Positions 7,213 to 16,502 of a stretch of DNA of 17,705 bases are shown piece after piece. The first letter of the stretch is position 1. The number at the start of each line of letters is the position of its first letter. Source of the stretch: a virus (lineage: Duplodnaviria > Heunggongvirae > Uroviricota > Caudoviricetes). The translations under genes and the position numbers were made by a program. The stretch lies in IMG/VR virus record IMGVR_UViG_2534681773_000018. One strand, written 5' to 3'. The notes beneath the pieces were generated by a model that had not been told where the DNA came from, searched no databases, and was given only the letters and a program-made list of their open reading frames with translations.

Positions 7213-10107
7213 ATGGCAGTAAAGATTTCAGGTGTACTGAAAGACGGCACAGGAAAACCGGTACAGAACTGCACAATCCAGCTGAAAGCAAAACGTAACA
7301 GCACCACGGTGGTGGTGAACACGCTGGCCTCAGAAAATCCGGATGAAGCCGGGCGTTACAGCATGGACGTTGAGTACGGGCAGTACAGCGTTATTCTGTT
7401 GGTGGAGGGATTCCCGCCGTCACATGCCGGGACCATCACCGTGTATGAAGATTCCCGACCCGGTACGCTGAATGATTTTCTCGGTGCCATGACGGAGGAT
7501 GATGCCCGTCCTGAGGCACTGCGCCGTTTTGAACTGATGGTGGAAGAGGTGGCGCGTAACGCGTCCGCGGTGGCACAGAACACGGCAGCCGCGAAGAAGT
7601 CAGCCAGCGATGCCAGCACATCAGCCCGTGAGGCGGCAACCCATGCGACTGATGCTGCAGATTCAGCACGTGCAGCCAGCACGTCAGCCGGACAGGCCGC
7701 TTCGTCGGCTCAGTCAGCGTCTTCCAGCGCAGGAACGGCATCAACAAAGGCCACTGAAGCCTCAAAAAGTGCTGCCGCTGCAGAGTCCTCAAAAAGCGTG
7801 GCAGCTACCAGTGCCGGTGCGGCGAAAACGTCAGAAACGAATGCCGCAGCGTCAGAACAATCAGCCGCCACTTCTGCATCCACCGCGACCACGAAAGCGT
7901 CAGAAGCTGCCACCTCAGCCCGGGATGCGGCGGCCTCAAAAGAGGCAGCGAAATCATCAGAAACGAACGCATCCTTGAGCGCCAGTAGCGCAGCTTCCTC
8001 GGCAACGGCGGCAGGAAATTCCGCGAAGGCGGCAAAAACGTCCGAGACGAACGCCAGGTCTTCTGAGACGGCAGCGGGACAGAGCGCCTCAGCTGCGGCA
8101 GGCTCAAAAACAGCGGCTGCGTCGTCTGCCAGTGCCGCGTCAACAAGTGCCGGGCAGGCCTCAGCCAGTGCCACCGCCGCCGGAAAATCGGCAGAAAGCG
8201 CCGCATCATCCGCTTCAACAGCCACAACGAAGGCTGGCGAAGCCACTGAGCAGGCCACGGCAGCAGCGAGGTCAGCTTCCGCAGCGAAGACATCCGAAAC
8301 GAACGCGAAAGCGTCGGAAACCCGTGCAGAATCCTCAAAAACGGCAGCGGCATCGTCCGCCAGTTCGGCGGCGTCATCGGCATCATCGGCGTCTGCTTCA
8401 AAAGATGAGGCGACCAGACAGGCGTCAGCAGCGAAGGGCAGCGCCACGACGGCATCCACGAAGGCGACAGAGGCTGCTGGTAGTGCGAAGGCAGCAGCTC
8501 AGAGCAAAAGTACGGCGGAATCTGCAGCAACGCGCGCTGAGACAGCGGCAAAACGGGCAGAGGATATTGCATCCGCCGTGGCGCTTGAGGATGCGAGCAC
8601 GACGAAAAAGGGGATAGTACAGCTCAGTAGTGCGACTAACAGCACTTCCGAGTCACTGGCGGCAACGCCAAAGGCAGTAAAAGCAGCCAATGACAATGCT
8701 GAGAAACGTCTGCAGAAAGATCAGAACGGTGCGGATATCCCTGGCAAAGACACCTTTACGAAAAATATTGGTGCCTGCCGTGCCTTCGGTGGGTCAGTAA
8801 GCACAACAACAGGAAACTGGACGACTGCACAGTTTATCGAGTGGCTGGATTCTCAGGGAGCATTTAACCATCCATACTGGATGTGCAAGGGTTCCTGGTC
8901 TTATGGCAATAATAAAATCATTACTGATACTGGCTGCGGTAATATTCATCTCGCCGGAGCTGTCATTGAAGTAATGGGGATAAAGTCAGCGATGACGATC
9001 CGCATTACCACTCCGACCACATCCAGCGGTGGCGGAACAACCAACGCCCAGTTTACCTATATTAATCACGGAACAGATTATTCACCTGGCTGGCGAAGGG
9101 ACTATAACTCCAGAAATAAGCCAACGGCATCAGAGATCGGGGCGCTACCGTCAGGTGGAACAGCAGTATCATCAGTTAATCTGGCTTCAAAAGGTCGGGT
9201 AGCCGCGCTGACAGACAATACGCAGGGGGCAGCAGGTCTTGAGTTATACGAGGTGTATAACAACGGATATCCAACAACGTATGGAAATATCATTCACCTG
9301 AAAGGGATGACAGCCGTTGGCGAAGGTGAGTTACTCATCGGCTGGAGTGGTACAAGCGGTGCTCATGCTCCGGCATTTATTCGTTCACGACGGGATACGA
9401 CCGACGCAAACTGGTCGCCGTGGGCGCAGCTTTACACCTCGGCTCATCCTCCTGCAGAGTTTTATCCAGTCGGTGCACCAATCCCGTGGCCATCAGATAC
9501 CGTTCCGTCTGGTTATGTCCTGATGCAGGGGCAGACTTTTGACAAATCTGCATACCCGAAACTTGCAGCCGCTTATCCGTCAGGCGTGATCCCTGATATG
9601 CGTGGCTGGACGATTAAGGGCAAACCTGCCAGTGGTCGGGCCGTATTGTCTCAGGAACAGGACGGCATTAAATCGCACACCCACAGCGCCAGCGCATCCA
9701 GTACGGATTTGGGGACGAAAACCACATCGTCGTTTGATTACGGCACTAAATCCACGAATAACATCGGGGCGCATACGCACAGTGTGAGCGGTACAGCCGC
9801 AAGTGCCGGAAACCATACTCATAGTGTCACAGGCGCATCAGCAGTCAGCCAGTGGTCACAAAATGGGTCAGTACATAAGGTAGTGTCTGCGGCCAGTGTG
9901 AATACAAGTGCTGCAGGAGCGCACACTCATAGTGTCAGCGGCACAGCTGCATCTGCAGGTGCTCACGCACATACTGTCGGTATTGGTGCTCATACGCACT
10001 CGGTTGCGATTGGCTCACATGGACACACCATCACCGTTAACGCTGCTGGTAACGCGGAAAACACCGTCAAAAACATCGCATTTAACTATATTGTGAGGCT
10101 TGCATGA
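7213..10107 (+). CDS. stf: Side tail fibre protein (lambda Stf-like), about 964 aa from ATG 7213
   Basis: N-terminus [26 protein letters not shown] matches lambda Stf. The ORF track starts at GTG 7207, but ATG 7213 is preceded by a GGGG run and matches the lambda start. Long Ala/Ser/Thr-rich repetitive segment, a Cys/Trp-containing central domain, and a C-terminal region with repeated GAHxH motifs ending [11 protein letters not shown] as in lambda Stf. Confidence 0.9.
7560..8590 (+). repeat. Imperfect tandem coding repeats (Ala/Ser/Thr-rich, recurring AAKTSETNA / SASTATTKA units) inside stf
   Basis: Recurrent nucleotide motifs such as aaaacgtcagaaacgaatgc / aagacatccgaaacgaacgc and the corresponding peptide repeats. 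The region has few stop codons in any frame, which produces many overlapping alternative-frame ORFs in the track. Confidence 0.6.
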
Positions 10108-10394
10108 TTACGCTCATTCTTTCTGCACCAGTAACCGAAATGGCTGAAGCATTTAAGCGGGTATTTGCAAATGCAGATAATGTGAATATTGTCGGAAAGC
10201 CATTTGAAACAATCAGAGAATTTGACTGCATGGTAAGTGCGGCAAATAGTTTCGGCCTGATGGATGGCGGTGTTGATGCCGCCATTACCACATTCTTCGG
10301 TTCTCAGCTACAGGCCCGCGTTCAGAATCATATTCTTCGTGAATATCTCGGCGAGCAGCCTGTAGGTTCTGCATTTGTGATCCTACCCACGTAA
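10104..10394 (+). CDS. Macro-domain-like protein fragment (putative ADP-ribose binding/processing); 3' end truncated by IS3
   Basis: ATG 10104 overlaps the stf stop (ATGA), suggesting translational coupling. Product contains [21 protein letters not shown], resembling the macro-domain signature (VVNAAN...GGGV..AI). Visibly more AT-rich than stf. The frame runs into the IS3 terminal repeat (from 10378) and stops there, so the last few codons are IS-derived. Confidence 0.45.
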
Positions 10395-10407: not shown

Positions 10408-11274
10408 CTAAGCGAGGTTCTGGTTTTCAAATTGTTCCGGACTGAGGCCGCCACACCAACTGTGCCGCCGCCACCGATTGTAATCACATTCGATATAATT
10501 AAACACCGTTGCCCGCATTATTTCCCGGCTGATAAAGTGTTCTCCATGGATACATTCCACTTTCAGCGAATGAAAGAAGCTTTCCACGCAGGCATTATCG
10601 TAGCAGCAACCTTTTGCGCTCATACTTCCACGCAGATTATGCCGCTTCAGTTGCGCCTGATAATCTGCTGAACAGTACTGGCCTCCACGGTCCGTGTGAA
10701 CGATAACGTTCCGGGGCCTCTTACGCCGCCACAGCGCCATCTGCAGGGCATCGCAGGCCAGTTGCGCCGTCATGCGTGGCGACATTGACCAGCCAATAAC
10801 GGCACGTGACCACAGGTCAATGACCACTGCCAGATACAGCCAGCCTTCATCTGTACGTAAGTACGTGATGTCTCCTGCCCACTTCTGGTTCGGGCCACTG
10901 GCGTAAAAATCCTGCTCCAACAGATTTTCTGACACAGGCAGGCCGTGTGCGCGGTAGCTGACCGGGCTGAACTTCCGGGAGGCCTTTGCCCTCAGTCCCT
11001 GACGGCGCAGGCTTGCCGCCACGGTTTTTACGTTAAAGGGGTAACCCTGAGCACGCAGTTCATCCGTCAGGCGTGGGGCACCGTAACGCTGTTTTGACCG
11101 GGTAAAAGCCGCGAGGACAACGCTGTCGCAGTGTTGGCGGAACTGCTGACGCGTGCTTATCCTTGTCCGCCGCTGACACCACGTATACCAGCCGCTGCGG
11201 GCCACCCGGAGCACGCGGCACATTGCTTTGATGCTGAACTCAGCCTGATGTTTTTCAATAAAGACATACTTCAT
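10408..11274 (-). CDS. insF: IS3 transposase OrfB (DDE integrase-like catalytic domain), 288 aa
   Basis: 288-aa ORF beginning [36 protein letters not shown], recognisable as the IS3 OrfB/InsF sequence. ATG 11272-11274 overlaps the orfA stop in the -1 arrangement typical of the IS3 family. Confidence 0.9.
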
Positions 11275-11863: not shown

Positions 11864-12439
11864 ATGGATTTCAGAATGAGTGAACAACCACGGACCATAA
11901 CAATTTATAATCTGCTGGCCGGAACTAATGAATTTATTGGTGAAGGTGACGCATACATTCCGCCTCATACAGGTCTGCCAGCAAACAGTACCGATATTGC
12001 ACCGCCAGATATTCCGGCTGGTTTCGTGGCTGTTTTCAACAGTGATGAGTCATCGTGGCATCTCGTTGAAGATCATCGGGGTAAAACGGTTTATGACGTG
12101 GCTTCCGGCGACGCGTTATTTATTTCTGAACTCGGCTCATTACCGGAAAATGTCACCTGGTTATCCCCGGAAGGGGAGTTTCAGAAGTGGAACGGCACAG
12201 CCTGGGTGAAGGATACGGAAGCAGAAAAACTGTTCCGGATCCGGGAGGCGGAAGAAACAAAAAACAGCCTGATGCAGGTAGCCAGTGAGCATATAGCGCC
12301 GCTTCAGGATGCTGTGGATCTGGAGATCGCAACGGAGAAAGAAACCTTGTTGCTGGAAGCCTGGAAAAAGTATCGGGTGTTGCTGAACCGTGTTGATACA
12401 TCAACTGCACCGGATATTGAATGGCCAGCCCTACCGTAG
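11864..12439 (+). CDS. tfa: Tail fibre assembly protein (lambda Tfa-like), about 191 aa from ATG 11864
   Basis: Product [62 protein letters not shown] ... [45 protein letters not shown] closely matches lambda Tfa. GAGGTG ribosome-binding site about 5 nt upstream of ATG 11864 (the ORF track starts at GTG 11858). Confidence 0.9.
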
Positions 12440-13712: not shown

Positions 13713-14180
13713 TGCGATATTGTATGTCTGATTCAGGATATGTTGACTTATACATCGGTTTTGTCTGGGTTATTGGATATGCCAATCCCTAATTTTATTA
13801 GAGCATGACTAAAAATGCTGAATATGATAAGGAGCGAAGTGATTATCAGTATGCTGTTCATATAGCCTCGAATTAGTAATGTGTTATATATGATATAGTT
13901 GACAATTTTTATCCTGGGTGTTCTTAAAGTTCGTAGATAAACATTGTCGTTTCAGGTATACAGGAATGCTAACAGGTGGCGGCAAAAATCAGGCGGTTTA
14001 TGGCGCAAGCTGAAGTGTCAACTGCAAACTATCTTATGCAGAGACTCTACACGGATTGGGTTTAAAAGTATACATAGATAACAGTTTTTATCTGAAGAAG
14101 AAAAATATCAAGGTGATATAGCCTATATGCCTATGATGCGGAGGAATGAATGTGATGGGAGTGATGTATCTGAATAGTTG

Positions 14181-14220
14181 AAAAACCGCAGACACGCCTT
14201 ATGCAAGAACGTGCTGCGGT
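14181..14220 (-). terminator. Rho-independent terminator for the - strand methyltransferase gene
   Basis: Stem ccgcagacacg (14186-14196) / cgtgctgcgg (14210-14219) with one bulge. On the - strand the stem is followed directly by TTTTT (complement of aaaaa 14181-14185), a few nt downstream of the methyltransferase stop. Confidence 0.5.
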
Positions 14221-14226
14221 TGGATG

Positions 14227-14895
14227 CTATTTTTTCCCTGAAGCGGAAAACATTACTACAGTACCTTGAACCTTGGTTTTAACATTCTCGAAATACTCTG
14301 AGAGTATATGTGTTAAGCCTTCTTCGGAATCTTTTGTGTTTGAAAAGATGCCTTTCTGATTGTAAATGCGCATCAGTTTTTGACCGAAGCTATTGTGCAC
14401 AATTCCATCGCCAAGAATTGTGGCTCCGTATAGAGTTCCATCGTCAGTTAAGGCCTGCGCCGCATTGCGTATTACACAGCTTTTTGTAGATATATTTCCA
14501 GGCAGGCAGTGAAGAAGGTAAAACATGGAAATGGAATCAAATTGACCATGTAACGCCGCGGGATAAGGTTCAAAAACATCATGGTTAATTTTATGTTTAA
14601 TTTTTGATTCCCCAGCCCTTGTAGATGCCGCGTTCAGGCTAGCTTCGTTCAAATCCATTAAAGATATCAGACTACTCTCAGGTACGTGAGTAAGGTAAAA
14701 CCCAGTTCCAACACCAATATCCAGATGGTTGTTACCTAAATGTTCCAGAAAGTGTGGAAGAAGGTGTTCCTTTGTAGGACATCCCCATGCAAGCCGATTT
14801 GATACTCCCAAAACCCACCAGTCATAAAGCTTTAGGGTAAGTGGTGTGTAAATTTTAGCCCCATCATCTGTGTTTTTTTTCATTAATTTCACCAT
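14227..14895 (-). CDS. ybcY: Class I SAM-dependent methyltransferase (ybcY-like), 222 aa
   Basis: Contains the glycine-rich SAM-binding motif LDIGVGTGF. Its position between a tfa gene and a tfaX-like remnant upstream of appY-ompT matches the DLP12 gene order as I remember it. The symbol is assigned by synteny and is not verified. Confidence 0.6.
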   Translation of the reverse strand: MVKLMKKNTDDGAKIYTPLTLKLYDWWVLGVSNRLAWGCPTKEHLLPHFLEHLGNNHLDIGVGTGFYLTHVPESSLISLMDLNEASLNAASTRAGESKIKHKINHDVFEPYPAALHGQFDSISMFYLLHCLPGNISTKSCVIRNAAQALTDDGTLYGATILGDGIVHNSFGQKLMRIYNQKGIFSNTKDSEEGLTHILSEYFENVKTKVQGTVVMFSASGKK

Positions 14896-14951
14896 GTTAT
14901 AGTTTTATTTGTGAATTAAATCAATTATGGCAATGAATTACAAGGGGTTAA

Positions 14952-15212
14952 ATGCTGCCGCAGCATAGCGATATTGAAATAGCCTGGTATGCTTCAATAC
15001 AGCAGGAGCCGAATAGCTGGAAGACCGTCACCACACAGTTCTACATCCAGGAATTCAGTGAGTATATTGCGCCACTGCAGGATGCTGTAGATCTGGAAAT
15101 CGCAACGGAGGAAGAAAGATCGTTGCTGGAAGCCTGAAAAAAGTATCGGGTGCTGCTAAACCGTGTGGACACTTCCGTAGCACCAGATATCGAGTGGCTT
15201 ATTCAACCATAA
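14952..15212 (+). pseudogene. tfaX: Tail fibre assembly gene remnant (tfaX-like): tfa C-terminal homology interrupted by an in-frame stop
   Basis: A 61-aa ORF ends at TGA 15135-15137 in the context EAWKKY (TGG to TGA relative to the intact tfa at 12360). The same frame continues [24 protein letters not shown] to TAA 15210-15212. The 3' roughly 140 nt is a diverged direct repeat of the tfa 3' end (12291-12431). Confidence 0.65.
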
Positions 15213-15753: not shown

Positions 15754-16502
15754 ATGGATTATGTTTGCTCCGTAGTTTTCATCTGTCAATCATTTGATTT
15801 AATTATAAACAGGAGAGTTATCTCGTTCAAAAAAAATTCATTGTTTATTGTAAGCGACAAAATTAGAAGGGAGTTACCAGTATGCCCCTCTAAACTAAGA
15901 ATTGTTGATATAGATAAGAAAACATGTTTATCCTTTTTTATCGACGTGAATAATGAGCTGCCTGGCAAATTTACTCTTGATAAGAATGGCTATATTGCTG
16001 AAGAGGAACCTCCATTATCGCTTGTTTTTTCTCTGTTTGAAGGGATTAAAATAGCAGACTCACACTCCCTTTGGTTAAAAGAAAGACTATGTATATCCTT
16101 ACTTGCCATGTTCAAAAAACGCGAAAGTGTAAATTCTTTTATACTAACAAATATAAATACATTTACCTGTAAAATTACTGGAATAATCAGTTTTAATATT
16201 GAGCGGCAATGGCATTTAAAAGATATTGCGGAATTGATTTATACGAGTGAAAGTTTAATAAAAAAAGATTAAGGGATGAAGGAACGTCATTTGCTGAAAT
16301 ATTGAGAGATACTAGGATGAGGTATGCAAAAAAACTCATAACTTCAAACTCTTATTCTATCAATGTCGTAGCCCAGAAATGTGGCTATAACAGTACTTCA
16401 TATTTCATATGTGCATTTAAAGATTATTATGGTGTCACGCCATCTCATTATTTTGAGAAAATAATCGGCGTCACAGATGGAATAAACAAAACAATTGACT
16501 GA
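15754..16502 (+). pseudogene. appY: AraC-family transcriptional regulator AppY, interrupted by a frameshift in a poly-A tract (split into 172-aa and 66-aa ORFs)
   Basis: N-terminus [21 protein letters not shown] and its position directly upstream of ompT identify appY. The first frame stops at 16270-16272 right after an A7 run (16260-16266). The second AraC HTH ([24 protein letters not shown]...[23 protein letters not shown]) continues in the +1 frame. The span is 749 nt, one short of a 249-aa gene plus stop. Confidence 0.75.

Follow-up and report, generated by a model that had tools for sequence, protein, structure and literature searches.

The window, a 17,705-nucleotide stretch of viral DNA, comes from a DLP12-type lambdoid prophage, of which it forms the right arm. 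It carries tail genes, lom, stf, tfa, pin, ydfK, a methyltransferase gene, a tfaX remnant, appY and ompT, and this gene order agrees with the DLP12 position proposed in the initial annotation. The features at and around the methyltransferase gene are as follows.

12272..12425, plus strand: left copy of a 154-nt direct repeat, corresponding to the 3' end of tfa (repeat search, family D1)
14181..14221, minus strand: hairpin and T5 run resembling an intrinsic terminator, also a mosaic module boundary (folding and comparison across copies)
14227..14895, minus strand: methyltransferase coding sequence (ybcY family, PHROG 2132), 222 aa from the first ATG
14227-14883, minus strand: the same coding sequence from the conserved second ATG, 218 aa
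14698..14724, minus strand: motif I, the SAM-binding glycine loop LDIGVGTGF, residues 58-66 (translation)
14896..14924, minus strand: sigma-70-type promoter-like site TTGATT-17-TATAAC with conserved hexamers, abutting the first ATG upstream
14924..14951, minus strand: alternative upstream promoter-like site TTAACC-16-CATAAT with a TG extension (consensus scan)
14952..15137, plus strand: tfaX-like remnant, the 3' part of a tail-fibre assembly gene, a 61-aa ORF divergent from the methyltransferase gene (PHROG tail-fibre-assembly families)
15045..15198, plus strand: right copy of the 154-nt direct repeat, corresponding to the 3' end of tfaX (repeat search, family D1)

The methyltransferase frame (14227..14895, minus strand) is unbroken over 222 aa in the list of open reading frames, as had been noted initially, and the canonical motif LDIGVGTGF reported at that stage is found at residues 58-66. 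The first ATG (14895) varies between copies: strain 200177 reads ACG at this place, and the copies from Citrobacter and the Salmonella plasmid read AGG or AAG. The second ATG (14883, Met5) is conserved in all of the 14 copies compared and has GGTGA ahead of it. The PHROG 2132 profile, which has 218 positions and is annotated as function unknown, matches residues 5-222 over its positions 1-218 (E = 2.2e-155). Taken together, the conservation of the start at 14883 and the profile alignment from residue 5 argue that the product is probably a protein of 218 aa starting at Met5. The exact protein is already in public databases, where it belongs to a 6,589-member 90% cluster named 'class I SAM-dependent methyltransferase [Escherichia coli]'.

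The TAG stop codon is followed by a GC-rich hairpin with its stem at 14186-14219, extended by two A-U pairs to 14184-14221, and then by TTTTT at 14185-14181; the end of the T-run is the start coordinate of the region as initially delimited. The hairpin has a folding energy of -22.3 kcal/mol (z = -4.7), and none of 200 shuffled sequences was equally stable. The fold energy agrees with the clean intrinsic terminator described earlier just downstream of the gene, which we treat as putative because the hairpin is common to a module without the gene. A simple terminator pattern scan missed it, presumably owing to the bulged stem and the inner stem-loop. The hairpin occurs in all E. coli copies with stem-preserving variation and is accompanied by a T-run only in some contexts, and the same hairpin with its T-run is found at a Qin-type prophage end that lacks the methyltransferase gene. 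It is a shared module-boundary element, not one private to the methyltransferase gene, and because it is also present at gene-less Qin ends it may not have evolved as the terminator of this gene.

The two 154-nt repeats (12272-12425 and 15045-15198) are 82% identical and bracket the pin-ydfK-methyltransferase segment; the segment is therefore a cassette that moves between prophages through recombination at tfa and hairpin sequences. At the Qin-type prophage end, the pin-ydfK-ynfT flank and the hairpin are present without the methyltransferase. Prophages with the gene are found at several chromosomal sites, every time between tfa-related sequences, and RefSeq treats the equivalent of the tfaX ORF in K-12 and ST2350 as a pseudogene (tail fiber assembly, incomplete). 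Among 50,697 phage records, only 15 carry the gene. Copies with 98-99% identity occur in 14 phage genomes, including those of the isolated phages Kati, Turner, ev243 and 2G7b, and are placed between the tail-fibre genes and appY/ompT/attP/int.

The methyltransferase gene runs against the late (tail) operon of the phage, in antisense orientation; late read-through therefore cannot express it, and it needs a promoter of its own. The spacer between the gene and the tfaX remnant is only 56 bp long and holds the conserved sigma-70-like site. TTGATT-17-TATAAC is conserved even in the Citrobacter and Salmonella-plasmid copies, at 87-89% protein identity, and transcription from this putative promoter would leave only a very short leader ahead of the ATG at 14883. 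The alternative site, TTAACC-16-CATAAT, is partly conserved in other copies and would give a leader of ~34 nt holding the Shine-Dalgarno-like element GGTGA. The promoter consensus scan did not find more sites here than in shuffled controls. For K-12 ybcY, a genomic SELEX catalogue of RpoD 'constitutive promoters' (PMC3946193) gives the hexamers TTGATT and TATAAC, an RNA-polymerase signal obtained in vitro and for the K-12 spacer; the ybcY/tfaX spacer of K-12 is also flagged as H-NS bound in that work. Expression in lysogens may be low and limited by H-NS. Searches of the literature for ybcY, STM1638 and the RefSeq accessions yielded no functional study, no biochemical data on any member of the family, and no record of activity, substrate or expression for the intact allele. 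The GC content of the gene is 40.4% (GC3 35.9%), as against 55-56% for L, J, lom and stf. Its putative promoter and terminator signals, foreign base composition, antisense position and flanking tfa repeats fit the moron character suggested initially.

The K-12 ybcY gene occupies the same locus, between a tfa fragment and tfaX-appY-ompT. Its coding sequence is 98.8% identical to that of the window in DNA, with the same promoter-like spacer and hairpin. Two bases are missing from it, the G of the conserved second ATG and one A in the A8 run, and its frame stops after nine codons; the window copy is intact. The remaining changes are five non-synonymous and one synonymous, and the K-12 hairpin has no T-run because it abuts the convergent tfa fragment. 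As stated in the initial annotation, the K-12 copy is a pseudogene: RefSeq describes it as 'class I SAM-dependent methyltransferase, frameshifted', and the lesion is the loss of 2 bp at codon 5.

Of 5,426 complete E. coli genomes, 3,796 have the gene; E. coli copies of it number roughly 7,800. In a sample of 14 evenly spaced annotated E. coli copies, 11 were intact; of the three disrupted ones, two have the K-12-type frameshift and the third is interrupted by IS1. Allele-specific megablast queries of 45-47 nt over the frameshift site returned no matches, presumably because the A-run was masked as low complexity. Intactness is the usual state in E. coli and the broken K-12 copy is the exception. 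The initial annotation had considered an intact copy notable beside K-12; the copy is indeed intact, but it is not unusual, as some four in five of the sampled copies have an unbroken frame and the gene is also found in inducible phages. The presence and intactness of the gene are ordinary, already known and annotated. As a separate observation, the loss of the gene in K-12 and other strains counts against a reading as functional cargo.

The product is, as judged from its sequence, a stand-alone class I, Rossmann-fold, SAM-dependent methyltransferase. It matches the Pfam family Methyltransf_12 with 39.1 bits (cut-off 30), and Methyltransf_23, _25 and _11 likewise exceed their cut-offs. The AF2 model (pLDDT 93.7) has seven beta-strands (56-60, 76-81, 99-104, 119-125, 149-160, 202-210 and 213-221), and in this model the whole chain makes up one Rossmann domain with a small cap. 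A fold search against the PDB gave more than 1,300 matches with E <= 1e-3, and a search of BFVD returned generic methyltransferase matches only. At 50% identity, 189 clusters of homologues have E < 1e-30; they are mostly 215-235 aa long and align end to end. Among 84 homologues, G61, G63 and G65 of motif I are nearly invariant, and Y24, D81, H129, G157 and D189 are invariant; D81 (LMDLN), the ribose-binding acidic residue, ends the predicted strand 76-81. The window copy has all five invariant residues. The alignment to K-12 ybcY and homologues proposed initially as a check shows that the window copy is full length relative to homologues of roughly 215-235 aa and, as every invariant residue is kept, it is therefore intact.

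In the mechanism that we propose, SAM would be held by the GxGxG loop and D81. The acceptor could bind under a family-specific cap composed of the N-terminal helix (Y16, Y24, D25, W37, C39) and the insert between beta5 and beta6 (N179, F184, N186, D189). The invariant His129, with Cys130, lies just past strand 4 and could be a catalytic or ligand-binding residue, possibly together with Asp189. This active site is putative, since no solved structure is related to the caps at the N- and C-terminal ends; sub-profiles for the N-terminal cap and for the C-terminal half found only chance matches in the PDB.

The nature of the acceptor can be approached by comparison with characterised enzymes. The best 50 PDB fold matches listed are all small-molecule, lipid or uncharacterised methyltransferases, without a single DNA or RNA methyltransferase; their characterised members are PmtA, JHAMT, phosphoethanolamine methyltransferases, PKS C-methyltransferase domains, SgvM, CouO, CysG, NodS, Coq5 and RebM (TM 0.52-0.69). 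Profile-to-PDB sequence matches are also nearly all of the small-molecule or lipid kind, the top ones being NodS, CysG, ToxA, PmtA, JHAMT and UbiG. A regular-expression search of the protein found neither (D/N/S)PP(Y/F/W) nor PCQ; the motif IV region reads DSISMFYLLHCLPG, and ENV occurs alone at residue 203, without any PCQ partner. The protein is a single domain of 218-222 aa with no target-recognition domain. The enzyme is predicted, from sequence and model, to act probably on a small molecule or lipid and not on DNA. The initial annotation had left DNA, RNA and small molecules open as substrates and had suggested that the methyltransferase subfamily be classified; the classification by fold and profile comparison gives the small-molecule type, which upholds that part, and the motifs and fold neighbours largely set aside the DNA part.

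Orphan DNA methylases are frequent in phages, which by itself speaks for a nucleic-acid methyltransferase, such as an orphan DNA methylase shielding phage DNA from restriction or an rRNA/tRNA methylase. A weak RsmC match in the PDB profile search (E = 1.6e-3) and a weak PADLOC match to the MADS methyltransferase mad2 (16 bits) point the same way. The absence of a catalytic motif of the (D/N/S)PP(Y/F/W) or PCQ type, a length of ~218 aa that is too small for an added target-recognition or RNA-binding domain, the best 50 fold matches listed, and a position antisense to the late operon in the lysogenic-conversion region leave this explanation with hardly any probability, and a DNA or RNA methylase was rejected on motifs, size and fold neighbours. 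An anti-phage defence component was also rejected, as PADLOC gave only mad2, a match to the core common to methyltransferases (16.4 bits, E = 7.7e-4).

Within the small-molecule and lipid class, two more specific assignments were weighed. The top Foldseek match in the PDB is the PmtA of Rubellimicrobium thermophilum (8ys9), which is of similar size (E = 2.9e-11, TM 0.61-0.65); phosphoethanolamine N-methyltransferases are near the top by TM (0.67), and the 4krh profile match reaches into the N-terminal helix. These matches would suit a PmtA-like membrane-lipid headgroup N-methyltransferase acting on phosphatidylethanolamine or a related amine. We give this assignment a faint chance, given that the NCBIfam PmtA model (NF045882) scores 15.7 bits against a cut-off of 390, the identity to PmtA is just 15-17%, and a TM of ~0.6 reflects the common Rossmann core. 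To our knowledge, methylated phosphatidylethanolamine is undescribed in E. coli, although this knowledge comes mostly from K-12, where ybcY is dead.

The second assignment is a metal-assisted carboxyl O-methyltransferase of the CysG/BelI type, in which His129-Cys130...Asp189 would replace a His-His-Asp calcium site. CysG and BelI bind Ca2+ via H122-H123-D191 and methylate a malate-type carboxylate (PMC11408123). In the profile alignment, H129-C130 fall on the His-His pair of CysG (9fcq is a mutant of the second His), D189 is invariant in the ybcY family, and CysG structures are within the fold matches at TM ~0.6. However, this alignment ends at residue 154, so that the pairing of D189 with CysG D191 lies outside it; a catalytic residue past strand 4 is widespread in class I methyltransferases, and biosynthetic partner genes are not linked to the gene. 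An enzyme of this type is very unlikely here. The broader prediction of a small-molecule or lipid acceptor is the one that we retain.

Whether the gene is maintained for its product was assessed from substitution patterns. The dN/dS ratio is 0.25 against the Citrobacter copy and 0.18 against the Salmonella plasmid copy; values of ~0.2 against relatives on other mobile elements speak for constraint, and this sequence comparison indicates purifying selection on the protein. Within E. coli, pN/pS ranges from 0.3 to 1.4, values that are inseparable from neutrality and uninformative because too few differences are present (copies differ at no more than 10 sites). DNA identity among the E. coli copies exceeds 98.5%, which together with the uninformative pN/pS, the three disrupted copies among the 14 sampled and the H-NS binding flagged for the K-12 spacer (PMC3946193) would also fit a silent passenger, intact only through recent spread of the cassette, silenced by H-NS, useless to the lysogen and heading to the K-12 state. 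In a test of Hha toxicity, a K-12 ybcY mutant behaved like the wild type (PMC2408971), which carries little weight for a silent passenger, as ybcY is already a pseudogene there; no other phenotype of a K-12 ybcY mutant was found reported in the literature. We regard a passenger as unlikely in view of the dN/dS values of 0.18-0.25, the retention of all invariant residues, and a family that is widespread and conserved across chromosomes, plasmids and phages. The gene is also still intact in heavily decayed DLP12 remnants reduced to int'-tfa'-methyltransferase-ompT.

We thus consider it likely, from sequence and model, that the gene is an intact and functional moron cargo of a DLP12-type lambdoid prophage, encoding a class I methyltransferase of ~218 aa for a small-molecule or lipid acceptor and not for DNA. 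As it stands this matters little, since thousands of genomes and phages already have the gene annotated, and it is commonly present and intact. What is clarified is that the K-12 pseudogene is unrepresentative of the species, and that the family, which is under purifying selection, turns up repeatedly as single cargo of prophages and virulence plasmids. Its mobile carriers include E. coli lambdoid prophages (by ompT/appY), the K. pneumoniae hypervirulence plasmid (by rmpADC), E. amylovora pEA29 and a plasmid-like Salmonella contig. A more far-reaching interpretation, which we hold to be quite unlikely, is that the ybcY family comprises functionally new and structurally unsampled small-molecule or lipid methyltransferases with a His-Cys...Asp active site that serve as recurrent single-gene fitness or virulence cargo of enterobacterial mobile elements. 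If this is true, the intact allele would give lysogens a chemical trait, for example detoxification of a host or environmental compound or modification of the envelope, which has been missed in K-12 studies because the K-12 copy is dead. Identification of the substrate would give a function to a gene carried by ~70% of the complete E. coli genomes and by ~600 plasmids of K. pneumoniae, among them a hypervirulence plasmid on which rmpA is its neighbour.

Compared with enzymes of solved structure (PmtA 8ys9, PfPMT 3uj7, JHAMT 7ebx, CysG 9fcd, NodS 3ofj and UbiG 4kdr), the protein shares the Rossmann core, motif I, the acidic residue that follows strand 2 and a residue of catalytic type past strand 4, but the identity is only 13-21% and TM is 0.5-0.7. 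The N-terminal helix motif (Y..L..YD..VL..SN...W.CP) and the C-terminal cap (YN.KGIF.N..D) are the family's own, without a counterpart in solved structures. The NCBIfam models for PmtA, RquA and CpaM reach 15-17 bits against cut-offs of 175-390.

The gene contexts of the family differ in Salmonella, Enterobacter, Erwinia, Testudinibacter, Klebsiella and Citrobacter. When all ORFs within 4.5 kb of the gene were clustered for 80 loci from different species, no conserved neighbour that could be an operon partner was found; the commonest ORF family occurred at 13 of the 80 loci, in varying positions. Escherichia phages Kati, Turner, ev243, 2G7b and the PhiR series have the same gene at 98-99% protein identity and differ in nothing essential, only in the flanks. 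Phage Kati has the identical order J-lom-stf-tfa-invertase-...-methyltransferase-appY-ompT-att-int, whereas ev243 has an alpha/beta hydrolase where the window has appY and lacks the invertase. STM1638 of Salmonella Typhimurium (220 aa, 56% identity) is likewise a stand-alone 'putative SAM-dependent methyltransferase', but it is located at a chromosomal non-prophage site adjoining rydC/cybB. The K. pneumoniae virulence-plasmid gene by rmpA (WP_011251259.1 of pRJF999; by position, BAH65943.1 of pK2044) encodes 217 aa with ~65% identity, and has been reported to be a marker for liver abscess and hypervirulent K. pneumoniae, an association by linkage only (PMC5126061, PMC9372168). It is borne by a plasmid and not by a phage, and like the gene in the window it is a single-gene cargo on a mobile element, there beside virulence-linked genes.

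The methyltransferase gene on the minus strand of the window belongs to the ordinary cargo of prophages and has been annotated before. The initial annotation had described it as an apparently intact SAM-dependent methyltransferase moron with its own terminator at 14181-14895, and this observation is confirmed. The coordinates are correct, 14181 being the last T of the T-run; translation of 14227-14895 yields the uninterrupted 222-aa frame with the LDIGVGTGF motif, and Pfam families Methyltransf_12, _23, _25 and _11 all score above their curated cut-offs. The features of the locus are as follows.

14227-14895, minus strand: methyltransferase ORF, uninterrupted, 222 aa from the first ATG
14698-14724, minus strand: motif I LDIGVGTGF, residues 58-66 of the translation
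14186-14219 (stem) and 14185-14181 (T-run), minus strand: GC-rich hairpin and TTTTT just past the TAG stop
14924-14896, minus strand: promoter-like TTGATT-17-TATAAC within the 56-bp spacer to the tfaX remnant
Just upstream of TTGATT-17-TATAAC, minus strand: alternative promoter-like TTAACC-16-CATAAT with a TG extension, from a consensus scan
12272-12425 and 15045-15198: direct repeat of 154 nt, 82% identical, formed by tfa 3' ends and bracketing pin-ydfK-methyltransferase

The actual product is probably a 218-aa protein starting from the second ATG (14883). This codon and the GGTGA ahead of it are kept in every one of the 14 copies compared, whereas the first ATG is variable (ACG in strain 200177, AGG or AAG in copies from Citrobacter and a Salmonella plasmid). 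All 218 positions of the PHROG 2132 profile match residues 5-222, and 218 aa is the length of many homologues.

The K-12 counterpart, ybcY of the DLP12 prophage, is a pseudogene, as the initial annotation stated: in RefSeq it is a frameshifted class I SAM-dependent methyltransferase, and alignment with the window shows that it lacks 2 bp at codon 5 (TTAATGAAAAAAAAC to TTAATAAAAAAAC) and differs by five non-synonymous substitutions and a single synonymous one. Since codon 5 is probably the true start, the lesion would remove the real start codon. The same start-site lesion (codon 5 ATG to ATA) was found in the bovine strain EC42405, where the gene is annotated as frameshifted. Aligned to ybcY and other homologues, the window copy is full length and its frame is intact.

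An intact copy is not unusual. Of 5,426 complete genomes of E. coli, 3,796 have a match spanning 80% or more of the 901-bp query, with up to five matching places in one genome. Among 14 inspected records, evenly spaced along the ranking, the gene is intact in 11, frameshifted as in K-12 in two and interrupted by IS1 in one. NCBI and UniRef already contain the identical protein; its 90%-identity cluster contains 6,589 sequences and is named 'class I SAM-dependent methyltransferase'.

In the window, appY (15754-16502) is frameshifted at an A-run near 16259-16266, where the A9 of K-12 is A8, which leaves a 172-aa and a 66-aa ORF in place of the 249-aa activator. K-12 is the mirror case, with appY intact and ybcY broken, also at an A-run. 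The window frameshift may just as well be a sequencing error in the homopolymer.

The family is sizeable and conserved. It matches 189 50%-identity clusters at E < 1e-30 and 787 at E < 1e-10, mostly 215-235 aa long and aligned end to end. In an 84-member alignment Y24, D81, H129, G157 and D189 are invariant, and Y16, D25, W37, C39, H57, the three motif I glycines, S121, C130, P132, G133, K138, T159, N179, F184 and N186 are nearly so; each of these residues is present in the window protein. E. coli copies differ at too few sites for a within-species estimate of dN/dS. Comparison with the closest copies from other mobile elements gives a dN/dS of 0.25 (dS 0.22) for Citrobacter freundii and 0.18 (dS 0.41) for a Salmonella plasmid-like contig. 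In strain 200177 (comparison locus L095, 3917-6894) the DLP12 remnant is reduced to argU-int'-tfa'-methyltransferase-ompT: appY, tfaX and envY are gone, and an intact 218-aa methyltransferase is kept. The DLP12 remnant of strain AHB29 is also much reduced and has an intact gene between a tfa fragment and ompT.

The initial annotation had left DNA, RNA and small molecules as substrates. The DNA reading can largely be set aside, and the fold, profiles and motifs point to a small-molecule or lipid methyltransferase. The AF2 model, a confident one (pLDDT 93.7, pTM 0.90), places the chain in one Rossmann domain of seven strands; helices form a lid at the N-terminus and an insert between strands 5 and 6. 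Characterised enzymes among the best 50 Foldseek PDB matches are all small-molecule or lipid methyltransferases at TM 0.52-0.69 (PmtA, juvenile-hormone acid and phosphoethanolamine methyltransferases, PKS C-methyltransferase domains, SgvM, CouO, CysG, NodS, Coq5 and RebM among them), with no DNA or RNA methylases; nearly all sequence-profile matches are of the same type. A DNA methylase was rejected on this absence from the best 50 fold matches, on a search of the protein that found neither (D/N/S)PP(Y/F/W) nor PCQ motifs, and on the lack of room for a target-recognition domain. The protein also lies outside the NCBIfam PmtA, RquA and CpaM equivalogs, because its scores of 15-17 bits are far under the cut-offs of 175-390. 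Sub-profiles of the N-terminal lid or C-terminal half found no relatives of solved structure, hence the substrate-binding cap appears to be family-specific. One lead is a putative CysG-like His-Cys...Asp site: in the profile alignment H129-C130 coincide with the His-His pair that, in CysG, completes with an Asp the Ca2+-binding triad used in carboxyl O-methylation (PMC11408123), and the invariant D189 could provide the Asp.

Folding energy and the T5 run agree with the intrinsic terminator claimed directly downstream. The predicted fold of the 71-nt hairpin region has an energy of -22.3 kcal/mol (z = -4.7), a stability that no sequence among 200 dinucleotide shuffles reached. A consensus terminator scan of the sequence did not report the hairpin at 14186-14219, presumably because of its bulged stem and inner stem-loop. 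The hairpin is kept in all E. coli copies, with variation that preserves the stem. The T-run is context-dependent: it is present in the window, ST2350 and the isolated phage Kati, replaced by a T-rich tail in O157, and missing in K-12 and phage ev243, where a convergent tfa abuts the hairpin.

The downstream flank 14050-14224, including the entire hairpin and T-run, is near-identical to a Qin-type prophage at its right end (L111, 2451-2640), which has the order pinQ-ydfK-ynfT-hairpin-ydfJ' and no methyltransferase; the homology breaks off just before the methyltransferase stop codon. Because the same hairpin and T-run end a prophage without the gene, the hairpin is best seen as a shared module-boundary sequence and likely recombination point of the mosaic, which in this window would also serve as a canonical terminator. 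A 138-bp opposite-strand ORF overlapping the gene's 3' end and the hairpin (L001 5959-6096; equivalents in L096, L098 and L104-L109), named 'nucleocapsid protein' or 'hypothetical protein' in RefSeq, looks like an annotation artefact.

The moron interpretation is supported by foreign GC, antisense placement, a promoter-like site, the terminator-like hairpin and the direct repeats. The GC content of the gene is 40.4% (GC3 36%) versus 55-56% in the tail genes, and it is antisense to the late operon. The TTGATT-17-TATAAC site is retained even in relatives of 87-89% identity; the K-12 genomic-SELEX RpoD promoter catalogue gives the same hexamers under ybcY and marks H-NS binding in the spacer (PMC3946193). 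Recombination between the repeat copies would delete or insert the pin-ydfK-methyltransferase cassette. The Rfam family IS009 (RF02111) matches at full length (218 bits) at 12207-12405 in the tfa 3' part, overlapping the left copy.

A lambdoid prophage sits at the DLP12 locus, and the window is its right arm, with the order tape-measure end, L, K, I, J, lom, side tail fibre, macro-domain fragment, IS3-type transposase, tfa, Pin-type invertase, ydfK, methyltransferase, tfaX remnant, appY and ompT. The macro-domain fragment (10104-10394) directly follows the side tail fibre gene and precedes the transposase (10408-11274, minus strand; rve and HTH_21 domains); at the equivalent place in ST2350, RefSeq has a macro-domain gene broken by an IS3 element. 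The ST2350 locus is near-identical, has the same annotation and runs on into envY-ybcH-nfrA. Kati shares the gene order of the window, with attP and int at the end, and in ev243 the gene sits between tail-fibre genes and ompT/int. Because these isolated phages hold it in a matching position, the methyltransferase, appY and ompT belong to the cargo region of a phage type still existing as an active virus. The usual layout in most E. coli prophages, found at several integration sites, is tfa and the methyltransferase gene converging on the hairpin, then 'tfaX. A prophage of O157:H7 86-24 (L097, 2334-4547) has the same cassette; before it comes a second block of cargo genes, for Mn catalase, two ferritin-like proteins and a general stress protein, and after it come IS66, an alpha/beta hydrolase and ompT.

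The ybcY family is a stand-alone, frequently mobile enzyme, since no neighbour gene family recurred in a fixed position in 80 loci from different species and homologues are carried by chromosomes, plasmids and phages. The Salmonella chromosomal homologue, STM1638 by position (L005, 8001-8663), is immediately next to cybB and rydC, an sRNA gene. The target activated by RydC is cfa, the gene for another SAM-dependent lipid methyltransferase; the two are not known to be linked. The Enterobacter homologue is found downstream of a liv-type operon that encodes an ABC transporter for branched-chain amino acids, that of Erwinia is divergent from a carboxylesterase gene, and that of Testudinibacter is at the end of an integrase island. 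Homologues occur on about 760 plasmids; 603 of these are Klebsiella plasmids, which often have two matching places each. On an E. amylovora pEA29-type plasmid (L113, 5001-5660) a 53%-identical homologue lies between serine recombinase and choline (BCCT) transporter genes; the nearest upstream enzyme gene in the window is also a serine recombinase (Pin), a parallel that may be coincidence. On the K. pneumoniae hypervirulence plasmid pRJF999 (L112, 6995-7648) a divergent, 65%-identical homologue adjoins rmpA-rmpD-rmpC-peg-344-iroN, and two papers report this rmpA-adjacent gene as a marker associated, by linkage only, with liver abscess and hypervirulence (PMC5126061, PMC9372168).
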